Source: Candidatus Krumholzibacteriia bacterium
Lineage (GTDB): Bacteria; Krumholzibacteriota; Krumholzibacteriia; Krumholzibacteriales; Krumholzibacteriaceae
Length of the DNA stretch: 64,000 nt
Direction of reading: 5' to 3'
Assembly (NCBI GenBank): GCA_963836185.1
Contig: CAWIIQ010000001.1
Location: 160,001-224,000 of the forward strand
Shown here: piece by piece, positions 13,664 through 32,207 of the stretch
Numbering within the stretch: the stretch's first letter is position 1
How the letters are laid out: each line of letters begins with the position of its first letter
The notes under the pieces: model-generated
Seen by the model: only the letters and a program-made list of their open reading frames with translations
Told to the model about the DNA's origin: nothing
The model's database searches: none
Made by a program: the position numbers and the translations under genes

Positions 13664-14238
13664 ATGTCAATTGAAGGGCACGAAGACCGAGAAGAACATC
13701 CTCGCCGCGTTCACCGGCGAGTCGCAGGCACGCAACCGCTACACCTATTTCGCCAGCAAGGCGAAGAAGGAAGGATTCGTCCAGATCTCCGAAATATTCA
13801 CGGAGACGGCGAACCAGGAGAAGGAGCACGCCAAGAGACTGTTCAAGCTTCTCGAGGGCGGAGAGGTCGAGATAACCGGGAGCTTCCCCGCGGGTGTCAT
13901 CGGCACTACGCAGGAGAACCTGATGGAAGCGGCCGGCGGGGAGAACTACGAGTGGACGCGAGATGTATCCCGGGTTCGCAAAGATCGCCCGCGAAGAGGG
14001 CTTCGACGAGATCGCCGTGATCTTCGAGTCGATCGCCAATGCGGAGAAGCAGCACGAGAAGAGATACAACGACCTGAGGGAAAATATCGAGAACGGTTCG
14101 GTCTTCAAGAAGGACAAGCCGGTCGTCTGGCGCTGCCGCAACTGCGGGTACACCCATACCGGCGAGGAAGCTCCCGACCAGTGCCCCGCGTGCGCGCACC
14201 CGAAGGCGCATTTCGAGGTCCTCGGGGAGAACTGGTAA
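13664..14238 (+). CDS. rbr: Rubrerythrin (frameshifts near 13670 and 13960)
   Basis: KGTKTEKNILAAFTGESQARNRYTYF, EKEHAK, MYPGFAKIAREEGF, WRCRNCGY...CPACAHP. Confidence 0.93.
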
Positions 14239-14290
14239 ACGAACGGAAATATTTTCGAAAGCGATTCCAATAACGTGAAAGGAGCCTGAA

Positions 14291-14669
14291 ATGGCAAAGA
14301 GACTGGAAGTTTACAAATGCGACATGTGCGGCAACATCGTTGAGGTCCTCACCGGCGGAGCGGGCAAGCTCGTCTGCTGCGGGCAGGAGATGAAGGTATT
14401 CGAAGAGAAGACCGCCGATTCCTCGACCGAGAAGCATGTGCCCTGTGATCGAGAAGATCGACGGCGGATACAAGGTCGTTGTCGGCAGCACGCTCCATCC
14501 GATGGAGGAGAAGCATTACATCGAGTGGATCCAGCTGATGTCGGGCGACGCGTCGATCAGGGCCTTCCTGAAGCCCGGCGACGCCCCGGAAGCTGTCTTC
14601 ATGTGTGATTTCGATGATGTCTCGGCCCGTGAGTACTGCAATGTACACGGGCTGTGGAAGGAGGAATAG
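14291..14669 (+). CDS. dfx: Desulfoferrodoxin / superoxide reductase (frameshift near 14443)
   Basis: YKCDMCGN...[30 protein letters not shown]. Confidence 0.93.
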
Positions 14670-14675
14670 ACAGAA

Positions 14676-15228
14676 ATGATCCCCGACAAGATCACAAAGG
14701 CCTTTAACGAGCAGATCATGCACGAGTATTTCTCGGCGTATCTCTATCTCTCGATGGCCGCATGGCTGGAGACCGAGGGCCTCGAGGGAATGGGGCGCTG
14801 GATGCGCGTGCAGGCCCTGGAAGAGATGACTCACGCGATGAAGTTCTTCGATCATATTCTCGAGAGAGGGGGCGAGCCGGAGCTGCTCGCCATCGAGAAA
14901 CCTCAGGCAAAGTGGGATTCGGCGCTCGACAGCGTTCGAGAACGCGCTCGCCCACGAGCAGTTCATCAGCGGCAAGATCAACGACCTGATGACCCTCTCG
15001 ATCGCAGAGAACGACCATGGCTCCAGGACGATGCTGCAGTATTTCGTCGATGAGCAGGTCGAGGAAGAGGACAACGCTTCGAAGAACGTCTACAACCTCC
15101 GGATGGTCGGCGACAAGGGGCAGGGGCTCCTGATGCTCGACCGTGAATTCGGTGCGCGGGTCTTCAAGCTTCCCGCTGACTCCGGTACTCGGTACAGGGG
15201 CGGAGTAACGGACCGGAATGAACGATGA
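14676..15228 (+). CDS. ftnA: Non-heme ferritin (frameshift near 14932)
   Basis: NEQIMHEYFSAYLYLSMAAW, EEMTHAMKF, LQYFVDEQVEEE. Confidence 0.9.
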
Positions 15229-19251: not shown

Positions 19252-19293
19252 AAAAAGAAAGGAGCCGCGCCCTTCACAGGACACGGCTCCTTC
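19252..19293 (-). terminator. Rho-independent terminator closing the Lon/sigma-like/anti-sigma operon
   Basis: Minus strand GAAGGAGCCGTGTCCT-GTGA-AGGGCGCGGCTCCTTTC followed by TTTTT. Confidence 0.8.
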
Positions 19294-19313
19294 AGCCCGG
19301 ATCTTCGCAGGAG

Positions 19314-19979
19314 TTACTGATTCGAAGATTCCGTCTTCACGCGTATCTTTGAGTCCTTTGAAATTGAGAAGCCCGCTAAATCCGTATCGAGCAGTCCATT
19401 CTGGCCGGTTATCAGAACTTTGCCGTCGACTACCACCTCGACGCCGCTGGTATTGATTCCCCTCTCTCCGACCAGGATATATGAGCGGTTACCATTGGCG
19501 ATGTTGGTAAATTCACTCAGGAAATAATTGCCGTCACCCGAGCAGAACCTGACGGGTTCTCTTTCAGGCCGCTCGGTAGCCGCTGCCAGCTGCGGCTCCT
19601 CTTCAAAAGGTCGTGTGTACGGCTCGTAGAACAGCTCGATCCCCTCCGACACGGATTCAGTAGTTTCAGAAGGAACCAACGATACATTATGCATGAGGAT
19701 ATCGAATCGTTCGTCGATATCTGCAGTTTCAACCGCCTGGCGATAGTAGCTGACGAATTCAATCAGCTCCTTTAGCGTTTCTCTGCACATCTCGCATGCC
19801 TCCAGATGGGATCTGAGATCCCCTTCACCGGGCTGAAACAGATCCGCCACAAGTGCCGCCGGATCTTTTCCCGGAGCGTCTTCTGCTCCGGCCCCTCCAA
19901 GTGCTCTAATGGCAAGTGCTTCCAACCTTCCCCCAGGGATACACCCTTCGGGCGTCGCATTTTTACACACTTGTCTCAC
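19314..19979 (-). CDS. Soluble zinc-finger anti-sigma-like protein
   Basis: N-terminal Cys plus HLEACEMC (HxxxCxxC, ZAS/zf-HC2), no TM helix, an acidic linker with QLAAATE, and a beta-rich C-terminal domain. Confidence 0.65.
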   Translation of the reverse strand: MRQVCKNATPEGCIPGGRLEALAIRALGGAGAEDAPGKDPAALVADLFQPGEGDLRSHLEACEMCRETLKELIEFVSYYRQAVETADIDERFDILMHNVSLVPSETTESVSEGIELFYEPYTRPFEEEPQLAAATERPEREPVRFCSGDGNYFLSEFTNIANGNRSYILVGERGINTSGVEVVVDGKVLITGQNGLLDTDLAGFSISKDSKIRVKTESSNQ

Positions 19980-19997
19980 CCCTTTACTGGAGACATT

Positions 19998-21083
19998 TCA
20001 TATATCTGCACGAATCTTTCTCAAAAAATTATCCCAGAGCACCTTCCAGAAGTTCTGGAAGCTCCCCATGTGCTTCTCTCTGTACAGTTCGGCGTCGCAT
20101 CCGGCGATGTGCCTGCCCAGAGCTTCATGGTGCTGGACCTTGCTGCCGTGGACTATGATCTCCTCGAGCATGTCCCATCCAGCCTTTTCGTAAGCGCCCC
20201 GGTATTCCGCCGAGCCGCCACTTCTCCAGCCATATGTCGCGGAGGTCTCGTCGAGGGCCTCTCTGGCCAGAAGGAGCATCTCCTTCTGAAGGTACTCCTG
20301 CATCGGGTCGATCTTCGTGGTCTCGATCCGGGGAGGGATGAAACGGGTGCTGATCAGCTCGAATACCGCGGTGCGAAGAGTCGAAATATGGATACAGCTG
20401 CCGTATATTTCGGTTCCCAGGAGCCAGTCGAATATCAGGCCTACCAGCCGTCCGGGTTTTTCTGATCCACGCAGGAGAGGCGCGCAGCCGGCGATGATCT
20501 CATCCGCCGAAGCCTGCCGCCCGGTGGATTTCCCCGGCGCTTCGAGGTCAGTTACGATATCGGCGTTTCGCCTGTATCTCGGGTCAGCCGTGATATGCCG
20601 GGCAACGGCCGAGAAGACATAGTGCAGCAGCTTCTTCTCGGTCTGGGATATCTCTTTGAGGGTATGGCTCAGATTGACCCCGGATATGCCCCTGAGGAAG
20701 AAAAAGAGGTCTCTCTTCTCGATCTTGTCGTCTCCGGAAAAGAATCGAAGGATGAGATTCGTGATTTCCAGGAAATTGTCCTCCCCCCTCGTCGAGTAGG
20801 GGATCTCTGCGGTGCTGTGCGCTATTTCATCGAATTCGTATGACACGGTGCTGAGAAAGAACCAGGAGGATCTCTTCGATTTCATCTCGAGCTCGGCGAC
20901 CGCCATCGCGAAGAGAGCGAGATAGATCATCTTGATGTCCCGGCGGACCGACAGTTCGGCCCCGTCGATCTCACCATCCATCAGCTCTGCGCCGGCCAGT
21001 GGCGAGAATACATCGCGGATATTCTCTGCCGCCTTGTACAGGCGTTCGAGATCGACGCCTTCAAGAATGTTTGAGTCGTTCAC
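19998..21083 (-). CDS. Hypothetical helical protein, possibly a divergent sigma-factor-like protein
   Basis: 361-aa ORF whose GTG start overlaps the upstream stop (GTGA), sitting directly before a ZAS protein. The resemblance to sigma region 2 is weak and by eye only. Confidence 0.55.
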   Translation of the reverse strand: MNDSNILEGVDLERLYKAAENIRDVFSPLAGAELMDGEIDGAELSVRRDIKMIYLALFAMAVAELEMKSKRSSWFFLSTVSYEFDEIAHSTAEIPYSTRGEDNFLEITNLILRFFSGDDKIEKRDLFFFLRGISGVNLSHTLKEISQTEKKLLHYVFSAVARHITADPRYRRNADIVTDLEAPGKSTGRQASADEIIAGCAPLLRGSEKPGRLVGLIFDWLLGTEIYGSCIHISTLRTAVFELISTRFIPPRIETTKIDPMQEYLQKEMLLLAREALDETSATYGWRSGGSAEYRGAYEKAGWDMLEEIIVHGSKVQHHEALGRHIAGCDAELYREKHMGSFQNFWKVLWDNFLRKIRADI

Positions 21084-23118
21084 TTGTTCTTTCCCGCAAG
21101 ATGTTTCAGGTACGACCTGTTGACCGTCGGTTCGGCCACCCAGTTTTCGCCGTTCCAGTAGCGAATGCCCTCGAGGAGAGCTTTTTCATCGTCTTTCTCT
21201 TCCGGAAAATCCAGATAGGTCAGGCTGTCGACGCGGCCGCTGCTGCTCCTGACCACCTTGACTATCTCCGCACCGGTAAAGGTCATGCCATCCTCGATCG
21301 TGAACAATACTTCTTCGGTCCTGCTCTTCACCCTGACACGGAGGCTGTCGTCATTTTTCATGATGCGGGTGTGCAGGGGCCAGACACGGGAGACATACCT
21401 CTCGAACCGGTGATAGGGCGGAAGCTTGACATAGTATTTCGCTATATCGGTCTCCATCCCGGTGAGGGCATAGCAAGCTCCGCGAGGCGACGATCCTTCG
21501 ACGTTGCCGGGATCGAGGACGACTATGACATTTGCGTTCAGCGCTATGTTGTATCCTGTCAGCAGCAGTTCTTCCCTTCCGTCACCATCGATGTCCCAGG
21601 CAGCCATCTCCTGCATGATCCCCTTGTGGAAGAATGCCTCGAAAGATCCGTCATCAAGCGAGAACCTGACCAGGGAAGCAGGCGGTTCTGTCTTGTGATG
21701 GGTTCCCACAAAGAGATGTCCCGGCCCGAATTCCTCGCTGAACGGAGATGTCGATTTTATCATCTGCAGACTGATCCTGTGCGCTGTTCTGTCCATGCCG
21801 GAATCTAATATGGACGCTTCGTCATAGACATGCCTTCGTAGCGAGTTGTCCGCGCCGGTCGAATACCAGGATGAACAGCTTGTTTCGATCAGGATCGCTG
21901 TCATCTGAGTGCCACGAGTCAGCCACGGCCGCCAGTATTTCCTCGCCATCATCCTCCAGAAAATCCCCGAAAGAGATGTGCATGTACGCGCTCGACTTCG
22001 ATATATCAAATCCAACGTCATATGAAGCGATCAGGATTCCTCTGGCGCTCCTCATGAGCAGCCTGGTTTTGTTGTGACTGACCTGTGTTATGGTGCTGTC
22101 TATTTTTATGCCGCTATGTTCAAGATAAGATCTGTTCATCGTGGGGTCCGGCGTCCATTCTTTTCCATCCCAGTACCGGACACCTTCCATGAGCTCATTT
22201 TCATCTGTTTTCTTTCTGGCGTATTCGAGACTGGTGATGCTGTCAGGCGCCTTCCCTGCGCGCATTGTATGGCTCATGACCACTTCGGCACCGCAGATCC
22301 TCATGTCGTCCGCGAAGGAATACTTGACGTCTTCAGCGCGGCTTTTTATCGAAAGGTTCAGAGTATCGGCATCGTCGAGGATCGATACCCCTAATGGATA
22401 CATGGGGCCTGTCAATCTCTCGAACAGGCGGAATTCGGGGAATCTTATATAGTACTTCGCGATGTCGGCATTCATATACGGGACGTTATAATTGTAGCCT
22501 CCTGGGGATGAACCTGCCATGTGTGCGGGGTCTAACACCGCTGCGATGGAGGCGTCGAGGGCTATGTTGAATCCGGCAAGAAAGATCTCTCTCTTCCCGT
22601 CTCCATCGAAATCACGGGCTGTCATTTCGGGGCAGTATCCCTTGTGAAAGAACGCCTCGAATCCGCCTCTGATGACATCGGCTTTTATAACGGCGGCAGG
22701 AGTGAAGGTCCCGTAGTGCGTGCATACGGCTACAATGCCCTTCCGCAGCTCATCAAGAAAAACGGCGTTCGAAGCGATCATCGTTATAGGCTTTTCATAC
22801 GCCCAGGGATCCATCTCTTTCCCCATGACCTCTTGCTGATCGTATGCATTGTGGTGCATCAATCGTCCTTCATCGTTGAAGACGAAGAAGTGCAGCCTGT
22901 CGAAATTTGATTTTTGACGGCGGAACTGGCGTGATTCCACTGCGATTGCCAGAATCTCTTCTCCCGGATGATCGTCCAGGTCGTGACGATAGATCCGGAC
23001 GTGCGGGCTCGCCGGGTAGATGTAAAACTCCGCCTCGTGGGTCGTCAACAGACGCGCGTACTTGTTGTGCATGATCAACTGGCCACCCTTGACCTCGACA
23101 GTATCTACTTTCCGGTCG
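21080..23118 (-). repeat. Intragenic tandem duplication of a ~335-aa extracytoplasmic domain
   Basis: Shared blocks in the two copies: GEEILA, FEAFFHKG, DGDGxxE, NIAL, VLDP, GSSP, DIAKYY, KSR, EG(V/I)RYW(D/N)GxxW, PT(M/V)NRSYL. Confidence 0.9.
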
Positions 23119-24371
23119 AGGTACGGTGGCAGGATAAATAGGACCAGCACGGCGAGCAGCAGGGGAACCAGGCTCGCTGCCAGATGCTTTCTCCACATGA
23201 ACAGCCTCTGAAGCAGCGGCTTGCCGATGGGCGTCCTGCGCCGGGCTGTCAGATCTGGATCGAGGAATATCCCGGCCACATCCGTAACGGGTACGAGATC
23301 GATCTTCCTCGCCGGGTACTCTCGGGAAAGGGCGGCAAGTTCCTTCTCTGCCGTATCGAGATTCCCGACAGGGAGGATCAGCTTCGAGAACCTCGAAAAG
23401 AAGGCGGCCCGCATCTTTTCGGCGATATGTGAATCTTCAACGGTCAGGATATTCCCGCCAGGGTCCACTTTGCCGGTAAAAGATGTGACATCGTCGAAAA
23501 TCAGTGTCTGCCTGTAGAGGTCGAGCCTGCTGAGGACGGATATGAGCAGGGCAGCGATGGCAAGACCCGCGGATCCCCCGGACAGCCTCTGGATCGCCGA
23601 AGCGGGGAAGGAGGCGATTTCGGGGAGAGATATCCTGTATTCCCTGGGCACTCTCAGGATACCTTTCATCCCCATCATGGAGGCTGCGTAATCCTCTCCG
23701 ACTTTTACGGCGGTACGGATCTGGCTCTCGAAGGTACTTTTAGGCTCGGCTGAGATGTTGTCGAAAGTGATTGCCGGATCGTATTTCCTCCGGACGCTCC
23801 ACTCACCGGTGATCCTGATCTCGACGCGTGCCTTTACGACACGGCCCGTACTGAAGGGTGTCTTTCCCGTGTTGTATGTCGATACGAGGGGGAGGCCGAC
23901 CGTACCCCAGGCGTTTTCCCTGAAGAAACCTCCAGTTCCGGTCTCGCTCCTGCCGTCAGTATCTGTATTCGGCCCGTTCGCGGGCCGGTTCCCGTCCAGG
24001 ACAGCCGAGATCGAATCGATCTCCGCCCGGATCCTCGATAATCCCTCTTCGACTCCGGCAGGGATATAGTCGCCTGTTGCCAGCGCGATGTCCCCGGTCA
24101 CCTCGTTAAGTGACAGCAGACCCTTGTATCCAAACGAGATATATGCCCCTGAGATGATCGTGTCCATGATGATGGGAGTGAAGCGGGCGAGCTGGGCGGC
24201 GTAGAAGGCCGGATTGGCGCTCTTGAGCTCCGCAAGCAGGATAGCGGCGGGCTCAGAGAGGGACAGGCCATCCTTCTTCCCCTTGAGTTTAAGGTAGAGG
24301 TGCTGAAGGAGGTCGTCGATTTCCCTGATCGACAGGTCGAAGTCGTTGGTCAATTGTGCCCCGCCTGGCAA
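21080..24371 (-). CDS. Membrane-anchored Lon-type (S16) Ser-Lys protease with duplicated extracytoplasmic FG-GAP-like domain (frameshift near 21842)
   Basis: LSGGSAGLAIAALLIS (Ser codon 23571-23573), FTGKVDPGGNI, IAEKMRAAF (Lys codon 23415-23417), LILPVGN and DLVPVTDV. One TM (LAASLVPLLLAVLVLFILP), then two similar domains with DFDGDGKREI/DIDGDGREEL. No AAA+ Walker motifs seen. Confidence 0.78.
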
Positions 24372-24479
24372 AGTCTCCCGCGGGTACCCCCTCCGCGGCG
24401 GCTCAAATATTTAAACCGGTTAATTCTAACCGATAACAGGCATCCAAATCAAGGAATTGAGAAAATCCGTCATTGATAC

Positions 24480-24524
24480 TTGACAGGCAACGATACGAGT
24501 AGTATCTTTACTATGGTTATAGTA
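24480..24524 (+). promoter_or_regulatory. sigma70 promoter plus BlaI/MecI-type operator
   Basis: TTGACA-17 nt-TATCTT (24480-24508), immediately followed by the palindrome TACTAT-GGTT-ATAGTA (24509-24524). Confidence 0.78.
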
Positions 24525-24551
24525 GAACGGCCGGTTTCACAGGGAGAGGCT

Positions 24552-24950
24552 ATGGCAGGACAGGATAAACTCACTCCCGTCGAATGGGAAATAATGGAGG
24601 CGGTCTGGGCCCTGGGCGAGGCTCCCTCGGTCCGGGAAGTACTCGAGAATGCCTTTCCGAATGGTGAGAAGGCATACACGACTGTTCAGACGGTCATGAA
24701 CATACTCGAGAGAAAAGGATTCCTCGAAAGGAAGAAGACGGGGATGGTCAACTTCTACAGGCCGCTCCGCTCAAGGGAAGATATGGAGCGCGAGGAGATG
24801 TCATCTATCGTCGCGAGGATATTCGGGGGATCGAAGCCGGCACTGGCCAGCTCGCTTCTCTCCCTCGAGGGGCTCGAGCTCGGCGAGCTCGAGCAGATAA
24901 AGGAAATGCTGGCCAGGCGCGAGAAGGAGCTGAAGGAGGATACGAAATGA
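24552..24950 (+). CDS. BlaI/MecI/CopY family repressor
   Basis: LTPVEWEIMEAVW, AYTTVQTVMNILERKGFL, IFGGS. GGAGAGG RBS before ATG 24552. Confidence 0.92.
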   Translation: MAGQDKLTPVEWEIMEAVWALGEAPSVREVLENAFPNGEKAYTTVQTVMNILERKGFLERKKTGMVNFYRPLRSREDMEREEMSSIVARIFGGSKPALASSLLSLEGLELGELEQIKEMLARREKELKEDTK

Positions 24951-26551
24951 TCCAGATGCTCAACAGCGCCGGAGCGACCTGGGGGGAGTTCTTTCTTCTC
25001 GCCGTAGTGCAGAACACGATATTTCTCGGTCTTGTCATCGCGGCTCTTCATATTTTCCGCAACGCGCCGGCCCGGGTGAGATATCTCATAGCTTTCACCG
25101 GTCTTGTGAAACTCGTGCTGCCCCCATTCCTGCGTATCCCTTCGATCATGACGATTCCGGAGGAGGGTGTCGGTGGTTACGGCAGCGTGATACCGTTTGT
25201 GAACGGTTCTGAAAGCGGATCGGTCTCGACGGTCATATCGGCAGGAGAGAATCTCACTGCTGCCGGAGTGTTTCTCGGGATCTGGGCCATTGTCGTTATT
25301 GCGGGGTTGGTCCTTCCCGTAGCGGCATCGGTCAGGCTCGCGCTGAAGTTGAGAAAAGCAGGACCTGTAGATCCAGGGGATATTCCCTGGATATCAGGTA
25401 TCGGGAACGTGCGGATCCTCAGGTCCGATCGCATCGCGATGCCGATCACCGTAGCCTATCTGCCGGGTCGCATATATGTCCCGATGGCATGGGACGAATG
25501 GACCATGAGCTGCCGCAGGATGGTCCTGATGCACGAGAAGGCCCACATGCAGAGACATGACGGACTCGTACTTATAATGCAGATAATCGCGAGAGCGATC
25601 TATTTTTTCCATCCGCTCGTCGCAATCCTCGATCGCAGGCTCTCCGAGTACAGGGAGATGGCATGCGACGACGCGACGGTAGGAGGGGACAGAGACTCCG
25701 GTGTGGAGTATTCCAGGTACCTGGTTGAAATCGCCGAATCGATCGTACGGGGTCCTTCCGTATGCGGCTCGGCGTCCGCCCTGATCAGGCGGAAGAATGA
25801 ACTGCTCAGAAGAGTAAGTTATCAGCTCGAGGAGGGCAGAATGCGTTCCATTTCAAAGACCAGGATAATGATACTGATGGCGGCGATAGTGCTGCTGGCA
25901 GTATCCCTTTCGTGGTACCGCGGCGAGGCGGATACCATTGACCCGCAACCGGCACCTCCGGTGCAGCCGGATCCTGCGGCACATCCCGCTCCCGTCGCGC
26001 CTCCGTCGCAGGAGAACTCAAAGAGGGCGATCAACGTGTCGCTCGCGAGCGATGGAGCCGAGGTCGACGGAAAGTCGATCGATTTGTCACTGCTCGTTGA
26101 GGCGCTCAAGTCAGTGGGAGGAGATGACCCGGAGAACGTCATGGTGAGGTTCGTATGTGCCGATGATGTGTCGATGGGGCAGGTCCGCATGTTTCACGAA
26201 GCCTTGGGAGAGGCCGGTATCGACAAGATCCGGTACGGTAAAAGTGATGGTGAGGGACTTACCATCCAGCTTCCGCCCCGGGAGGCGCTCGACCGGCTGG
26301 CGGAAATGCCGGAAACAATGATCATCGATGTGGTGGTCGGAAAGAACGGCGGTGTCGTTGTCGGTGCCCGGAATGTGGAGATAGATGAGCTGAAGGGTGT
26401 TATCGAAAAGAAACTCGAAGAGACACCTGTTGCTATCGTCGTGATCCACAATGATGAGGCAACGAGTTACGGTGATTTCACGAAGGTGCTTGCGCTGGCC
26501 AAGAAGGCGGGTGCGGAGCGGATCGTTGTTAAGTACGGAAAAGAAGAGTAA
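24947..26551 (+). CDS. BlaR1/MecR1-type M56 metallopeptidase sensor with two C-terminal ExbD/TolR-like domains
   Basis: TM helices, VLMHEKAHMQRHD, YFFHP, REMACDD, a Pro-rich linker, and two ExbD-like units (ADDVSMGQV...AGIDKI; NDEATSYGDFTKVL...AGAERI). Confidence 0.85.
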   Translation: MIQMLNSAGATWGEFFLLAVVQNTIFLGLVIAALHIFRNAPARVRYLIAFTGLVKLVLPPFLRIPSIMTIPEEGVGGYGSVIPFVNGSESGSVSTVISAGENLTAAGVFLGIWAIVVIAGLVLPVAASVRLALKLRKAGPVDPGDIPWISGIGNVRILRSDRIAMPITVAYLPGRIYVPMAWDEWTMSCRRMVLMHEKAHMQRHDGLVLIMQIIARAIYFFHPLVAILDRRLSEYREMACDDATVGGDRDSGVEYSRYLVEIAESIVRGPSVCGSASALIRRKNELLRRVSYQLEEGRMRSISKTRIMILMAAIVLLAVSLSWYRGEADTIDPQPAPPVQPDPAAHPAPVAPPSQENSKRAINVSLASDGAEVDGKSIDLSLLVEALKSVGGDDPENVMVRFVCADDVSMGQVRMFHEALGEAGIDKIRYGKSDGEGLTIQLPPREALDRLAEMPETMIIDVVVGKNGGVVVGARNVEIDELKGVIEKKLEETPVAIVVIHNDEATSYGDFTKVLALAKKAGAERIVVKYGKEE

Positions 26552-26595: not shown

Positions 26596-29500
26596 CTACT
26601 CGTACTTGAAAGACTTGTCTGGATATTTCGGGGGATCGGGTACGTCGACCGGCTCTTTCTTTATCAGCTCCTTGAGGTGCTTTATCGCCGCGTCGAGCTG
26701 GGCGTCCTTCCCCTTGAAAGTGGCATGAGGCAGGTTGTCGACTATGATGTCGGGGTCTACGCCATGCCCCTCGATCAGCCACTCGCCCTCCGGGCCGTAG
26801 ACTCCTGTCTCGGCGGCCGAAGCCATTCCCCTGTCGGCAAGCCATGTCCTCATCGAGAGCCATATCTCGCCTCCCCACGTCCTCGTTCCGATCACCTTGC
26901 CCAGGTCGAGACGCCTGAACCCCTCGGTGAAAGCCTCGCCGTCGGAAGCGGTGCGCTCGTTGCAGAGAACGACGATGTGTCCCCTGAAGGCGTACTGCAT
27001 GTTCCATGTCGGAGAGCCCTTGCGCGGCTTCCAGTAGAACCATGCCTGGCGGATCAGCTTCTCGAGTATCCAGCTGTCGATATTGCCGCCGCGGTTGTGG
27101 CGTACGTCGATGATCAGCCCCTTGCGGTTGAAAACGGGATAGAAGTTGCGCACCCACTCGGAATAGTTTCCTCCGCCCATCGCGCGGAGGTGGACATATC
27201 CGATATCACCGTCCCCTTCTTCCTCGACTATCATCCGGCGCGTATACTCCCATTCGTTATAGCGGAGGTTGCTCTCCTGCCTCGGCGTGATCGGCTTTAC
27301 CACCGTCTCGACCGTCTCCTTCTTTCCTTTCGGCATGATTGTGAGAAGGACCTGCCTGTCAGCCTGGTTTTTCAGGAGCACGGCCGGGTCCTCTACGCTG
27401 AGGACTGAGATCCCGTTGATCGCAGTGATGACGTCGCCCTCGCCCGCCTTTACTTCCGGCCTCGCGAGAGGGGAGAGGTACTCGGGGTAATCGGGCTCTG
27501 TCTGGTAGATATGCTCGATCCTGTACCCTCCGGCCTTCTCGTCCCTTGTCAGCCTGGCGCCGAGCGAGGCGGGGCTGACCTGGTCCTCACCGCTGCGCCG
27601 GTCGCCTCCGAAGACGAAAGTGTGAAGGGCGGAGAGTTCGCCGACGAGATGAGCGATCAGGTCGTTGAGCTCGTTACGGTCGGTGACACGGTCGACGACG
27701 GGCAGATGCCTCTCGAGCAGGCCTTCGTAGTCTACGCCGTGCATGCCGGGATCGTAGAAGAAATCCCGCTCGAGGCGCCACGCCTCGATGAACATCTGTC
27801 GCCACTCATCGCGCGGTATCACCGAGAAATTCCAGGCGGAGAGGTCGACCTTCTCCTTCGCGAGTTTCGACGGGGGAGAGGTCGAGGCGTCTATGACATA
27901 GACGCTGCTGCCCTTGCGAACGATCAGTTTCTTTCCGTCGCCCGAGATGTCGTATCCGGTTACGCCGTCGAGCAGGGTCTTCGTCTCGATATCGTCGTTT
28001 GTTATCCCTATAGCCTTGAGGTTGCGTTTCCCCTCGTATGTGATCTCGCGGTCGACGACAAAGATCGCCTTGTCGTTGACCTTCATGCTCGAGTAAGCGC
28101 CGGCGGGAACGGGGACCTCGACCGCACGTTCGATGAGGCCATCGAGCTCTATCTCGACCTTAATGCCGTCGTCTTTCTCCTTCTCGTCATCCTTTTTCTT
28201 ATTTTCATCCTTTTTATCGTCCCCGTCCTTCTTTCCATTCTTCTCAGCGAGGTAGACCTCGTCATCGGGGAGGAAGGGCGAGCGCAGACCGGACTGAAGC
28301 GCTGTCATGTAGATCTTCGTCGTCTTGTCGAAGAAGGGCTCAGGCTGTCGTGGCCCCCACGGGGACCGAACGAGCGACCTGAAATTCCTGTCGGAGAGGA
28401 AATATATCCACTTGCCGTCGGGGGACCAGACAGGGTTCTCGCTGTCGACACGGTCGGTCGTCATAATCGTGATCTTGCCCGTGTCGAGACTGTAGAGATG
28501 TATCCGTGAATGCTGGTTCTCCGCGTTCGCCACGTAAGCGAGCCACCTGCTGTCGGGGGACCACGCGAATCCGTAGAAGCCGTATCGCTCGGAGGTGGCG
28601 ATACGCTTGTTCTTCTTCTTTTCGACGTCGTAGATCCAGAGCTCATAGTTCTTGTCATCGTAGACGAAATGCTTGCCGTCGGGGGACGGGACCCCTTCAT
28701 ACCGGAAGACTTTTCCGTCCGAGGTGAGAGCCTCCTCCATCCCCGGCACGATGGCGTCGAGCTTGACGAACTCGAGTTCACCTGTCTCGTCCGAGAGGGC
28801 GAGGATCGACTTGCCGTCAGGCATGAAGGCGGCATTGCGGTACCGCACGCTGTTTTTCCTCGTGACCTGGGCGAGACGGCCTTTCTTTACCGGCGCGGTA
28901 AATACGAGCCCGCGGGCTGTCATGACGATGCGGCTGGCGTCGTGAGAGATGCCGAGCGAGGTCATGTAGTTGACCGGGTTTTTCACCCATCGTTCCCTTG
29001 TCTGGTCGAAATCGGAGGCGAGGGTGATATCCAGCCTGCTGTCCTCGCCCTTTTCAATGTCGTAGAGGAAGAGGTCGGCGACTCTCTGGTAGACGATCTT
29101 TCCGCCGTGCAGCGAGGGATGGTTGATATCCCATCCGCTGTGAGTCGTGTGCTGCACGAGATCTCCGCCTGATTCGTCCATCGACCAGATATTCATCGTG
29201 CCGTCACGGTCGGTCACGAAGTATACGCGGCCGTTCCACCACATCGCCGCCTTGCTCGTGCCGGTGTAGTCGGCGGTCAGGGGGACGGCCTCGTTCTTGC
29301 CGGGGCCGAACTTCCACAGGTTCTGCGCCGTGCCCCCTGTGTACCTCTTCGTCTGGCTCCCCTGGAACGGCAGCCTGGTGAAATAGAGGGCGCCGTCACC
29401 GCCGTACGATCCGTCGCTCGCCTGCGCGAGAGGAACGAGCTCGATATTCCCCGAGTCGAGATCGATCGCGGCGAGCTGCATGTCCGGCAGGGTAGAGAAT

Positions 29501-29871
29501 TTATACGTGCTGTACAGGATCCTGCCGTCGGGCGTCCATCCGGAGACAAGAGCGGTTCCGCCCTCGAATGTCCGCCTGACGGGGAGCCCGCCGTCTACAG
29601 GTATCGTGTAGACCTCGGTCGGGCCTTCGTACTGGGCGGAGAAGGCGATGAGGGTCCCGTCGGGGGAGATCTCGGCGTTCGTCTCCTGGCCGTGGTGTGT
29701 GGTAAGGCGCCTCGCCATCCCGCCATCGGCGCCGACGATCCATAGGTCGCCCTCGGCGGTGAATACGATCGTATCGTCGTGTATGGCGGGGAACCTGTAG
29801 TAGCCGAGGTTGCCCGCGGCGTTGAGCGTTACAGGTATGATCAGAAAGAGAAGCAGAAGAAGGCGTTTCAT
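26596..29871 (-). CDS. Tricorn protease homolog (S41, beta-propellers and PDZ), secreted
   Basis: Signal peptide, GYYRFPAIH, SPDG repeats, VGELSALH, IIDVRHNRGG, TASDGE, GTRTWGG, IEGHGVDPDI. Confidence 0.95.
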   Translation of the reverse strand: MKRLLLLLFLIIPVTLNAAGNLGYYRFPAIHDDTIVFTAEGDLWIVGADGGMARRLTTHHGQETNAEISPDGTLIAFSAQYEGPTEVYTIPVDGGLPVRRTFEGGTALVSGWTPDGRILYSTYKFSTLPDMQLAAIDLDSGNIELVPLAQASDGSYGGDGALYFTRLPFQGSQTKRYTGGTAQNLWKFGPGKNEAVPLTADYTGTSKAAMWWNGRVYFVTDRDGTMNIWSMDESGGDLVQHTTHSGWDINHPSLHGGKIVYQRVADLFLYDIEKGEDSRLDITLASDFDQTRERWVKNPVNYMTSLGISHDASRIVMTARGLVFTAPVKKGRLAQVTRKNSVRYRNAAFMPDGKSILALSDETGELEFVKLDAIVPGMEEALTSDGKVFRYEGVPSPDGKHFVYDDKNYELWIYDVEKKKNKRIATSERYGFYGFAWSPDSRWLAYVANAENQHSRIHLYSLDTGKITIMTTDRVDSENPVWSPDGKWIYFLSDRNFRSLVRSPWGPRQPEPFFDKTTKIYMTALQSGLRSPFLPDDEVYLAEKNGKKDGDDKKDENKKKDDEKEKDDGIKVEIELDGLIERAVEVPVPAGAYSSMKVNDKAIFVVDREITYEGKRNLKAIGITNDDIETKTLLDGVTGYDISGDGKKLIVRKGSSVYVIDASTSPPSKLAKEKVDLSAWNFSVIPRDEWRQMFIEAWRLERDFFYDPGMHGVDYEGLLERHLPVVDRVTDRNELNDLIAHLVGELSALHTFVFGGDRRSGEDQVSPASLGARLTRDEKAGGYRIEHIYQTEPDYPEYLSPLARPEVKAGEGDVITAINGISVLSVEDPAVLLKNQADRQVLLTIMPKGKKETVETVVKPITPRQESNLRYNEWEYTRRMIVEEEGDGDIGYVHLRAMGGGNYSEWVRNFYPVFNRKGLIIDVRHNRGGNIDSWILEKLIRQAWFYWKPRKGSPTWNMQYAFRGHIVVLCNERTASDGEAFTEGFRRLDLGKVIGTRTWGGEIWLSMRTWLADRGMASAAETGVYGPEGEWLIEGHGVDPDIIVDNLPHATFKGKDAQLDAAIKHLKELIKKEPVDVPDPPKYPDKSFKYE

Positions 29872-30366: not shown

Positions 30367-31668
30367 TTATTCAATATCAATCGTCTCCGCCCGAAGATCG
30401 CCGTAGATGACCCTCCAGCGGCCGTCCTCGAGTTTCCAGCGCATCAGGACCTTGTCGTGATCGGTGGCTCCGACTGTAGCGCCGTTATATTCGACTTCTA
30501 CGCCCTTCTCCACCATCCCGGCGTAGAATGTGCTGAGACCGCGGACCTTGAAGAAGACCTTTATCTCGTCAGGGCCCCACTCTCCATCTTCCTGGAGACG
30601 GTCGCGGTCCTTGCGGATCTCGCTCGCCGCCGTGTCGAAGGCGGGATCGCCGGGGTACCTTCCGTTTGAAAGGGTAGCGTAGGCCCGGAGTCCCTCGATC
30701 GCTCCTTCCTCGCCGTCCTTTGTTTCGCCGAAATCGAGGGTGCCGTATCCATCGGGGACCTCGAATTCGAAATCCTCCTTCGACAGGGACGCGTTCCACT
30801 GGAAGTCGGTGTATTTCTCGCGGACATCGACCTTTCCATCGTCCGACCTGAACTCCCTCTCTATCAGCACGGGCCAGTTCGTCGACGCGTCGACCCAGAG
30901 GCGGACCGAGCCCTCCTCGTACTGTCCGGCCCACATCGCCGGGTCGTCGACCTCGATCCCCGAGGCGGTGACTCCGTCGATCTCACGGGTGCCTATCTCC
31001 TCGTAGTCGTAAGAGTGGAAATACTCGACCATATCCTGTGCGCTGGTCATGTCGGTCAGGCTCTTTGCGTCGCGGCCTGTCAGGCCGATCGTCACGTATG
31101 CCTCGTCCTTGTGATGGAGGAGGTGGACCTCCTTTTCACCTGCCCTCAAAAAGGTTTCGGCGGAGAGCTTGCCGTCGATGTACATGACCTTCTTCTGACC
31201 AAATTTTTTCGAATGATAGGCTATTATTTCCATGCTGTCCCAGGGGGTCGCCACCCGGTCTATCCGGCAGATGAAATCCTGCGCGTCGCGGACCTGGGCG
31301 ATGACATCCGCCCACGCGACGTCGCCGCTTCCGCCCCTGAATATGACGTTCCATCCGACTAACAGGACAAGCGCGGCTGCCGCGGCCAGAGCGATCCTTA
31401 CCGGCCAACTCAATGACGTTCTTTTTCTGCTCTCAGTCTGCGCTGCGATAGATTCCATGACTCGTTCCTCCAGCTGTTCGATCCTCGTGTCCATAGATCG
31501 AGTCATTCCGGTCAGCAGCATGTCGTCCTCGAGAAGAGCGTCGCGGTACTCCCTGCACACGGCGCATTCGGCGATGTGTTCCTCGATTCCCGCGGTCTCT
31601 TCGGCGGGAAGTTCCGAGTGCAGCATCTCCTCGAGTTTTTCCTGGATCTCGACGCAGCGGTCGTTCAT
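30367..31668 (-). CDS. Transmembrane anti-sigma factor (zf-HC2) with periplasmic LolA-like region
   Basis: HIAECAVC, TM helix IALAAAAALVLLVGW, AWADV motif. Start overlaps the ECF gene stop. Confidence 0.85.
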   Translation of the reverse strand: MNDRCVEIQEKLEEMLHSELPAEETAGIEEHIAECAVCREYRDALLEDDMLLTGMTRSMDTRIEQLEERVMESIAAQTESRKRTSLSWPVRIALAAAAALVLLVGWNVIFRGGSGDVAWADVIAQVRDAQDFICRIDRVATPWDSMEIIAYHSKKFGQKKVMYIDGKLSAETFLRAGEKEVHLLHHKDEAYVTIGLTGRDAKSLTDMTSAQDMVEYFHSYDYEEIGTREIDGVTASGIEVDDPAMWAGQYEEGSVRLWVDASTNWPVLIEREFRSDDGKVDVREKYTDFQWNASLSKEDFEFEVPDGYGTLDFGETKDGEEGAIEGLRAYATLSNGRYPGDPAFDTAASEIRKDRDRLQEDGEWGPDEIKVFFKVRGLSTFYAGMVEKGVEVEYNGATVGATDHDKVLMRWKLEDGRWRVIYGDLRAETIDIE

Positions 31669-32207
31669 TTCGAACCTGCCTGTTTCTCAAGGATCCTGCG
31701 CAGTTTCCTGCGCGCCCTGCTCAGCCTTGTGCACGCTCCGGCGTGGCTTATCTCGAGTTCCTCCGAAAGCTTCTTCGCGCTCTTTCCATCGAAGTAGAAT
31801 AGCATCAGCGGAGTGCGGTACTGCTCCGGGAGTTCGGCCAGAGCCTCGTGCAGCGCCGAATAGTCATCGGCATCCGGCTGCGGGTCTTTCATTCTTTCTT
31901 CCAGGAGCTCACGGCGCCTCGCTCTGACCCGGATATGATCGCGGCAGAGGTTTCTCGCGATGTGTGTGATCCACGGCCCGAACGATTCACCACTGCGAAG
32001 GGCGCCGATGCTCGAGAATCCCTTTACAAAGGTTTCCTGCGCTATATCGTCGCTGTCTGTCGTGTTTCCCAGGATTCCGATGCACACGGCGTAGACCCTT
32101 CTCGAATGCCTCCGGACCAGGCCGGCGAATGCCTGCCTGTCCCCGTCTCGGCTTGCTGTGACCAGATACTCGTCTGTTCTCTCGTTCACGGGAGCTCCCT
32201 TTCTCAC
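31665..32207 (-). CDS. ECF RNA polymerase sigma factor
   Basis: GDRQAFAGLVRRH, DDIAQETF, FGPWITHIARN, LPEQYR, TRLSRARRKL. Confidence 0.93.
   Translation of the reverse strand: MRKGAPVNERTDEYLVTASRDGDRQAFAGLVRRHSRRVYAVCIGILGNTTDSDDIAQETFVKGFSSIGALRSGESFGPWITHIARNLCRDHIRVRARRRELLEERMKDPQPDADDYSALHEALAELPEQYRTPLMLFYFDGKSAKKLSEELEISHAGACTRLSRARRKLRRILEKQAGSK

Follow-up and report, generated by a model that had tools for sequence, protein, structure and literature searches.

Introduction

In the SigW-RsiW and sigmaE-RseA pathways, a membrane-spanning anti-sigma factor is cleaved by two distinct enzymes, the site-1 and site-2 proteases. BlaR1 and MecR1 combine an outer sensor and an inner protease in one membrane protein, and the soluble regulator BlaI is destroyed; BlaR1 is a multi-pass M56 zinc metalloprotease that acts on a repressor. 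Archaeal LonB is anchored via its ATPase domain and carries no sensor ectodomain. Here we describe a three-gene locus in a 64,000-nucleotide (nt) stretch of the Candidatus Krumholzibacteriia bacterium assembly GCA_963836185.1 (contig CAWIIQ010000001.1, positions 160,001 to 224,000), referred to as the window, whose coordinates are used throughout; it belongs to contig 1 of a genome estimated to be 92.5% complete. The locus encodes a Lon-type protease with a membrane helix and an ectodomain (gene 1), a divergent sigma-like protein (gene 2) and a soluble zinc anti-sigma-like protein (gene 3). We propose, with a probability of roughly two in three, that gene 1 is a ligand-activated membrane receptor protease that cuts the gene 3 protein at an LAA sequence, that ClpXP degrades the cut protein, and that the divergent sigma-like factor is thereby released. 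Domain anatomy, conservation of the catalytic dyad, gene linkage, the LAA sequence, the presence of ClpX and ClpP and a conserved promoter-like motif were established by sequence analysis and computation, and from these we infer all interactions among the proteins.

The CRISPR-associated CalpL-CalpT-CalpS system provides the nearest comparison. In the parts of bioRxiv 10.1101/2024.05.08.593097 that deal with cleavage, CalpL acts in trans within filaments and cleaves CalpT between A204 and A205 of the sequence 202-LAAA, creating an LAA end that is a degron needed to free CalpS; another CalpL, in the corresponding part of 10.1101/2021.12.06.471393, likewise cuts after a conserved Ala. Compared with that system, our locus shares an ATPase-less Lon with a Ser-Lys dyad behind an N-terminal domain, a three-gene cluster and a sigma partner, and gene 3 shares with CalpT the layout of a two-domain soluble anti-sigma with an LAAA linker, which is here present and conserved, with cleavage predicted. 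CalpL, as portrayed there, is soluble and senses cyclic tetra-adenylate (cA4) via a SAVED domain, whereas gene 1 has a membrane helix and an outer propeller; CalpT combines MazF-like and DUF2080 domains, whereas the N-terminal domain of gene 3 resembles the zinc-binding anti-sigma (ZAS) fold; and gene 2, unlike CalpS, is a 361-residue three-domain protein without a match to an extracytoplasmic function (ECF) sigma profile. The module works like CalpL-CalpT-CalpS without being a member of that system, because it has no SAVED domain, no CRISPR link was found and the anti-sigma fold is another. An earlier claim that cas genes are lacking from the window holds as far as Cas1 is concerned: Cas1 was not found in the 92.5%-complete genome by a search whose positive control was detected in 7 of 14. 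Only Cas1 and SAVED were searched, and the SAVED search gave no match, but its control gave none anywhere.

With the SigW-RsiW and sigmaE-RseA pairs the locus has in common a zinc anti-sigma domain, for which RsiW is the top solved match, and an anti-sigma gene placed after the sigma gene; RseA, according to an excerpted account, is also finally removed by Clp via an Ala-Ala end (VAA). The locus departs from both cascades in that its anti-sigma is soluble and its sensor and protease are one protein. Gene 1 differs from BlaR1 in that it encodes a Lon serine protease with a single membrane pass, a propeller as its sensor and, as its predicted target, an anti-sigma-like protein; no Pfam match to an M56 zinc metalloprotease or a penicillin-binding sensor was found in it. 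Finally, gene 1 shares the fold and dyad of the proteolytic domain with LonA and LonB (MEROPS S16), but has no AAA+ module.

Results

The three genes lie on the minus strand in the order gene 1, gene 2, gene 3 (Table 1). Genes 1 and 2 overlap in a GTGA at 21083-21080, while genes 2 and 3 are spaced by 18 nt (19997-19980), and the promoter-like site 5' of gene 1 is alike in the 5 congeners aligned. A preliminary description of this DNA had reported such a co-oriented triad with its overlap, gap and closing terminator, and both the coordinates and the layout hold. The genes also stay together elsewhere, as that description would predict. The triad is complete in 14 of the 16 loci fetched, including a second copy in the same genome; one of the remaining loci is cut by a contig end and the other has no adjacent gene 1. 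The same 13 genomes, out of 42 of the family, carry gene 1 and gene 2, and the module is present in all six congeners (6/6). The second copy (G000:C1:418260-422382, locus L033) is distant, at 24–31% identity, with dyad, LAA and promoter-like motif intact and its gene 2 frameshifted in the assembly. No relatives of gene 1 were found in viral contigs.

The module recurs in a second phylum with its gene order changed. A search of 151 genomes from this second phylum gave 18 matches that extend over both protease and ectodomain; 16 receptor loci were fetched, of which 14 have the order sigma-like gene, zinc gene, receptor and the other 2 are cut by contig ends. Profile comparison further links the gene 2 family to a larger family labelled KSB1 or Calditrichota (98.8%, E 1e-16, with the distant relative P0072 left out). 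A zinc-motif gene follows the gene 2 relative in at least 64 of 80 loci carrying these labels (39 long, 25 short), and no Lon gene was found in their flanking sequence, up to 8 kb in length. In the five whole genomes that have no neighbouring Lon, the matches were short ones only, within frames of 810-844 residues presumed to be ordinary Lon. The Lon-less pairs (L051-L130) are fixed in their chromosomal position, in most cases following the gene of a sigma-54 response regulator, and a strongly conserved two-box motif follows their sigma-like gene.

To describe gene 1, we combined its profile with an AlphaFold model of residues 7-755 (predicted local distance difference test, pLDDT, 81.5). The modelled Lon domain superimposes on the solved structure of E. 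coli Lon (1rr9_A) with Z 18.9 and a root-mean-square deviation (rmsd) of 2.3 over 181 aligned residues, and by sequence it scores under the Pfam Lon_C cut-off. The gene 1 profile aligns Ser267 and Lys319 with the matching positions of archaeal Lon structures. Upstream of the protease there are only about 120 helical residues, and hence no AAA+ module; by analogy with the N-domain of CalpL, this helical domain may be the docking site for gene 3. A membrane helix is predicted at residues 397-415, with a hydropathy of 2.72 and a basic stretch before it. A hydrophobic helix after the catalytic Ser (residues 263-281) was considered as a second membrane helix and rejected, as it belongs to the Lon core; CalpL was formerly mispredicted with a membrane helix of the same sort, as noted in the relevant part of 10.1101/2021.12.06.471393. 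The anatomy first proposed for gene 1, namely a cytoplasmic Lon fold with an intact dyad and no AAA+ module, one membrane helix and two ectodomain repeats, is thus retained, except that in this assembly the gene is not one open frame but breaks near 21842.

The dyad is strongly conserved, which bears out its original assignment as intact. Close homologues keep the catalytic Ser in 27/28 and the Lys in 28/29, one fragment being without the Ser region, and both residues are kept in 17/17 further homologues despite drift of GGSAG to GDSWG, GRSLE or GTSLG. Overall, the dyad is intact in 44 of the 45 homologues covering both sites. In genome G016, two receptor genes stand in tandem (L024:5450-10019), the first without both catalytic residues and the second intact; the former may be a co-receptor or decoy.

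The two ectodomain repeats of gene 1 are 42% identical to each other. Their propeller has a best structural Z of 11.9, and FG-GAP_3 matches were obtained for 9 of 12 members. In 5 of the 7 genomes from the genus the ectodomain is doubled, and elsewhere there is one copy. The same ectodomain occurs in proteins of 450-500 residues in other genomes of the phylum, and 4/4 of those checked carry an N-terminal helix-turn-helix (HTH) domain, so that an outer domain shared between DNA-binding and protease outputs has the appearance of a sensor module. These HTH-membrane helix-propeller proteins (L199, L200, L201) are found in many genomes of the phylum, often in several copies, and are probably one-component membrane regulators.

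Gene 3 had been described as a soluble HxxxCxxC protein. It indeed contains H58xxxC62xxC65 together with Cys13, and no membrane helix was found in it by sequence. An alignment of 30 members, picked in part for the motif, has Cys13, His58, Cys62 and Cys65 without exception, and the motif spacing is longer than usual owing to an insert of about 20 residues. The best solved-structure match of the gene 3 profile is the anti-sigma RsiW (E 0.002), and zf-HC2 is matched in 14/30 members. At 25 distant loci the gene 3 relative consists of a 90-residue zinc domain alone, indicating that the zinc domain is the core module.

Between the zinc domain and the beta-rich C-terminal domain of gene 3 lies the linker sequence FEEEPQLAAAT. 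Ala132 and Ala133 are 2 of the 7 invariant columns among 16 homologues that diverge down to 26% identity; the Ala-Ala pair is kept in 31/31 gene 3 homologues of receptor-bearing genomes, and LAA also occurs in the gene 3 relative of one more distant locus. In the second phylum, 15/15 zinc partners of the receptor have LAA in the linker, compared with 1/39 long zinc proteins from Lon-less loci. Because the Lon-less loci form one clade, however, this contrast counts as a single event. Judged from the sequences, the retention of LAA across deep Lon-linked lineages is the stronger fact; it survives in lineages less than 30% identical and within a variable linker. By analogy with CalpT, cleavage of the linker would probably not suffice to release the sigma factor and would instead expose a ClpXP degron. 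Genes for ClpX and ClpP are present, side by side, in the genome.

Gene 2 encodes, as first described, a mostly helical protein of 361 residues, and its predicted structure has a pLDDT of 83. When this model was compared with 48,161 solved chains, the top three matches, all covering residues 6-148, were sigma-factor or transcription-complex chains (Z 7.6, 7.5 and 7.4), with many sigma chains below them. The match to 9m84_F (Z 7.6) has an rmsd of 2.7 over 90 aligned residues, and that to 7lq4_A (Z 7.5) an rmsd of 3.3 over 107. Upon re-alignment of 898 Foldseek candidates to gene 2, ranks 1-26 were sigma chains by entry title (Z 5.3-6.5), mostly aligned end to end; alignments over the whole length extend to the sigma C-terminus, with an rmsd of 14-22. 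In the ESM Atlas there was no usable match for gene 2 itself, and its distant relative P0072 gave leads only, in clusters with 14-32% sigma Pfam members (score 0.84-0.85). Gene 2 is a probable member of a new sigma family.

A bipartite promoter-like motif overlaps the last codons of gene 2, 5' of gene 3, and is the putative target of gene 2. Synonymous conservation is highest in the final ten gene 2 codons (0.78 vs 0.54), with Arg358 encoded as CGT in 14/14. The two boxes with their 16-nt spacer recur in 16/17 loci, from which the pattern was derived, including those with the gene 2 end at another place. When tested across clades, a matrix built from 7 close loci ranked the site 1, 1, 1 and 24 among 6,000-36,000 positions in 4 distant loci, and the reverse test ranked it 1-13 in 7 loci. 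The KSB1-labelled loci have another motif of like geometry (TTTCCGT, 13 nt, TG, 3 nt, GTAT), located after the stop codon in 57/79 loci vs 7/14,700 control windows, and this motif persists when displaced from the gene 2 stop. Clade-specific two-box motifs 5' of the anti-sigma gene would fit a sigma factor that drives its own inhibitor. Contigs from the RNA libraries of one study cover gene 3 alone (19295-19914) and end at the terminator, as an internal promoter would predict; they come with no control and are not counted as evidence, and sequencing-run matches to the locus are small shares only.

Table 1. Features of the receptor-protease locus, in window coordinates.
Feature	Position	Strand	Basis
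Sigma-70-type promoter-like site 5' of gene 1, TTGATT-18 nt-TAGAAT	24423..24452	-	consensus match only
Gene 1, receptor protease, ~1090 aa if whole; helical N-domain, Lon domain, membrane helix, two propeller repeats; one-base frameshift near 21842	21080..24353	-	ORFs (open reading frames), relatives, predicted structure
Gene 1, helical N-terminal domain, ~120 aa	23997..24353	-	predicted helices
Gene 1, Lon (S16) proteolytic domain without AAA+ module	23238..23912	-	profile, predicted structure
Gene 1, catalytic dyad	Ser267 codon 23573-23571; Lys319 codon 23417-23415	-	
Gene 1, single predicted membrane helix after basic stretch, N-terminus inside	23127..23183	-	hydropathy, predicted structure
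Gene 1, ectodomain repeat 1, partial beta-propeller with FG-GAP-type motifs	22116..23120	-	predicted structure, profile
Gene 1, ectodomain repeat 2, tandem duplicate, cut by frameshift	21083..22115	-	sequence
Gene 2, divergent sigma-70-like protein, 361 aa: sigma-2-like 6-148, middle domain without clear match, C-terminal helical 256-361 (sigma-4-like, weakly supported)	19998..21083	-	predicted structure
Bipartite promoter-like motif CGTGCA-16 nt-CCAGTA, overlapping last codons of gene 2, 5' of gene 3	19984..20012	-	conservation
Gene 3, soluble zinc anti-sigma-like protein, 221 aa: Cys13 + H58xxxC62xxC65, linker, beta-rich C-terminal domain	19314..19979	-	sequence, profiles
Gene 3, Leu131-Ala-Ala-Ala134 in linker: cleavage predicted after Ala133, concealed putative ClpXP degron	19578..19589	-	conservation, CalpT analogy
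Intrinsic terminator-like hairpin, 16 pairs then T run, closing the operon	19258..19293	-	sequence

Within the window, the triad's neighbours are housekeeping and regulatory genes. Divergent from the triad, at 24480-26551 (+), lie genes for a BlaI-family repressor and for an M56 peptidase with fused ExbD-like domains; this unrelated pair is linked to the triad in some relatives only. By labels from sequence reading, 26596-29871 encodes a tricorn-like protease, and 30367-32207 (-) an ordinary ECF sigma with a membrane-anchored zinc anti-sigma-like protein encoded after it. At 13664-15200 (+), rubrerythrin, desulfoferrodoxin-like and ferritin genes are frameshifted, and the two that were compared with a relative point to assembly indel errors.

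Discussion

The idea of a membrane Lon receptor acting on an anti-sigma to free a sigma factor was put forward in the preliminary description; it is supported here by the conserved dyad, the linkage of the genes, the sigma-like structure of gene 2, the LAAA of gene 3 and the motif 5' of gene 3, and is refined by the ClpXP degron step. In the resting state, the gene 3 zinc domain would hold gene 2. Binding of a ligand to the outer propeller would cluster the receptors, whose Lon domains could then cut gene 3 docked on a neighbour, in trans, as in CalpL filaments. A cut after Ala133 would leave an N-terminal piece with an acidic tail ending in LAA, which would be degraded by ClpXP. The freed sigma-like factor would redirect RNA polymerase and, by transcribing more anti-sigma from the internal promoter, would reset the switch.

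Several observations weigh against this pathway, and they are taken up below together with the alternatives that they touch. The first alternative leaves the biochemistry as it is and changes its purpose: the ectodomain would sense a phage, predator or rival product, and the freed sigma would arrest growth as CalpS does. Such a role, which is compatible with the proposed pathway, would fit the patchy spread of the module (13 of 42 family genomes), the duplications of receptor and ectodomain, and an ectodomain that diverges faster than the protease (mean identity 29% vs 40%), and CalpL, the closest known system, is antiviral. A defence role nonetheless seems unlikely, as PADLOC gave no match below E 0.069 for 8 proteins, Cas1 was not found, no relative of gene 1 was found in viral contigs, the module is present in every congener, and its neighbours are housekeeping and regulatory genes.

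A second alternative concerns this copy only and is likewise compatible with the pathway. The assembly splits gene 1 near 21842 into an 849-residue frame (21822-24371) and a continuation to 21080, and if the frameshift were real the receptor would end after 843 residues, counted from a TTG at 24353 that is a likelier start than 24371. No independent contig bridging the frameshift was found among the sequencing-run contigs, one DNA contig of which stops at 21841. We nevertheless consider a genuine break quite unlikely. The relatives encode one protein of 1084-1106 residues with one base fewer near 21842, and the part beyond the break is 53-61% identical to them. An assembly error is likely, since the rubrerythrin, the ferritin and the second gene 2 copy of the genome are split likewise, as in error-prone assemblies. 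In either case, an 843-residue form would resemble the single-repeat homologues of 755-770 residues and still contain protease, membrane helix and one complete ectodomain.

According to a third alternative, the receptor cuts gene 3, yet gene 2 is a sigma-shaped mimic or a DNA-binding activator that works with another sigma. The structural scores are middling (Z ≤7.6, inside the tool's 'common' range), the C-terminal domain alone best matches globin-like bundles, and the middle domain of 100 residues has no clear match; the sigma chains at the top therefore represent an enrichment and not proof. No sigma profile match was found in the gene 2 family (0/31 members with Pfam, 0/48 with NCBIfam), Foldseek returned no match reaching E 0.001, gene 2 alignments searched against the sequences of solved structures gave no sigma match, and comparison with 13 ECF sigmas encoded in the genome yielded a weak profile match (5.9%, E 0.006). 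The sigma fold first suggested for gene 2 stands as the best structural match, at middling scores. Against the pathway as a whole, no regulon was found in searches with a weight matrix and a pattern: on contig 1 the matrix gave 12 sites above 16 bits, 2 of them training sites, vs 0-8 in shuffles, with none convincing; the pattern search of 43 genomes was uninformative, as most known sites were missed; and 5 genomes of the second phylum gave 13 motif sites vs 4 in controls, with no clear theme. On the other side, sigma chains fill the top ranks and are aligned end to end, the weak ECF match runs collinear across region 2, a zinc anti-sigma-like gene follows the gene 2 relative in most of the distant loci, and the motif 5' of gene 3 has a two-box, fixed-spacer geometry. 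Taken together, these features make a mimic or activator improbable.

The remaining observations bear on the link between receptor and gene 3. The gene 3 protein of the window itself has no zf-HC2 match in Pfam, and the homologues without LAA form one clade in a tree of 44 selected sequences. In three genomes (G016, G024 and G020; loci L024, L027 and L028) stops or frameshifts interrupt the zinc domain; the promoter-like motif, the C-terminal domain and the Ala-Ala linker are all preserved, and we offer no explanation for this. In G020, gene 1 is unlinked and its first 180 residues are missing, and one tandem gene 1 copy, in G016, is without either catalytic residue. A fourth alternative is that the Lon domain acts on some other protein (gene 2, its own receptor or an unlinked one) or serves as a scaffold alone, the LAA linker being structural or cut by another protease. 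It draws on this dead copy and on the decaying zinc domains, on LAA and Lon having been lost in one phylogenetic event and on cleavage of gene 3 being a prediction. It is distinctly improbable given that the dyad is kept in 44 of the 45 homologues covering both sites, that the dead copy adjoins an intact one, and that LAA, which as in CalpT lies in a variable stretch joining two domains, is retained at less than 30% identity.

The receptor class is apparently undescribed. No description of the module was found in the literature searched, in which subscription journals are mostly missing; neighbourhood figures in the CalpL preprint supplements might show such loci. PMC11229360 and PMC8195603 do not cover it in the passages concerned. 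We lean, by a modest measure, towards regarding the module as an undescribed transmembrane signalling class, in which single-pass receptor proteases with a propeller outside and an ATP-independent Lon inside destroy a soluble zinc anti-sigma by way of a concealed LAA degron. The factor set free would be a member of a three-domain sigma family that is as yet unclassified and has a promoter code and a feedback loop of its own. This class would cover two or more phyla, and the CRISPR CalpL cascade may have drawn its logic from such signalling stock.

The model is directly testable, since the cut site, the degron and the promoter are each named, and a receptor of this kind, which crosses the membrane once and joins a modular ectodomain to a proteolytic output, would be an attractive part for synthetic sensors. 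If the model is true, hundreds of proteins now labelled hypothetical would belong to a sigma family missed by curated profiles, and the protease-degron-sigma logic of CalpL would extend beyond CRISPR. Receptor proteases would then constitute a route across the membrane alongside kinases, cyclases and intramembrane proteolysis.

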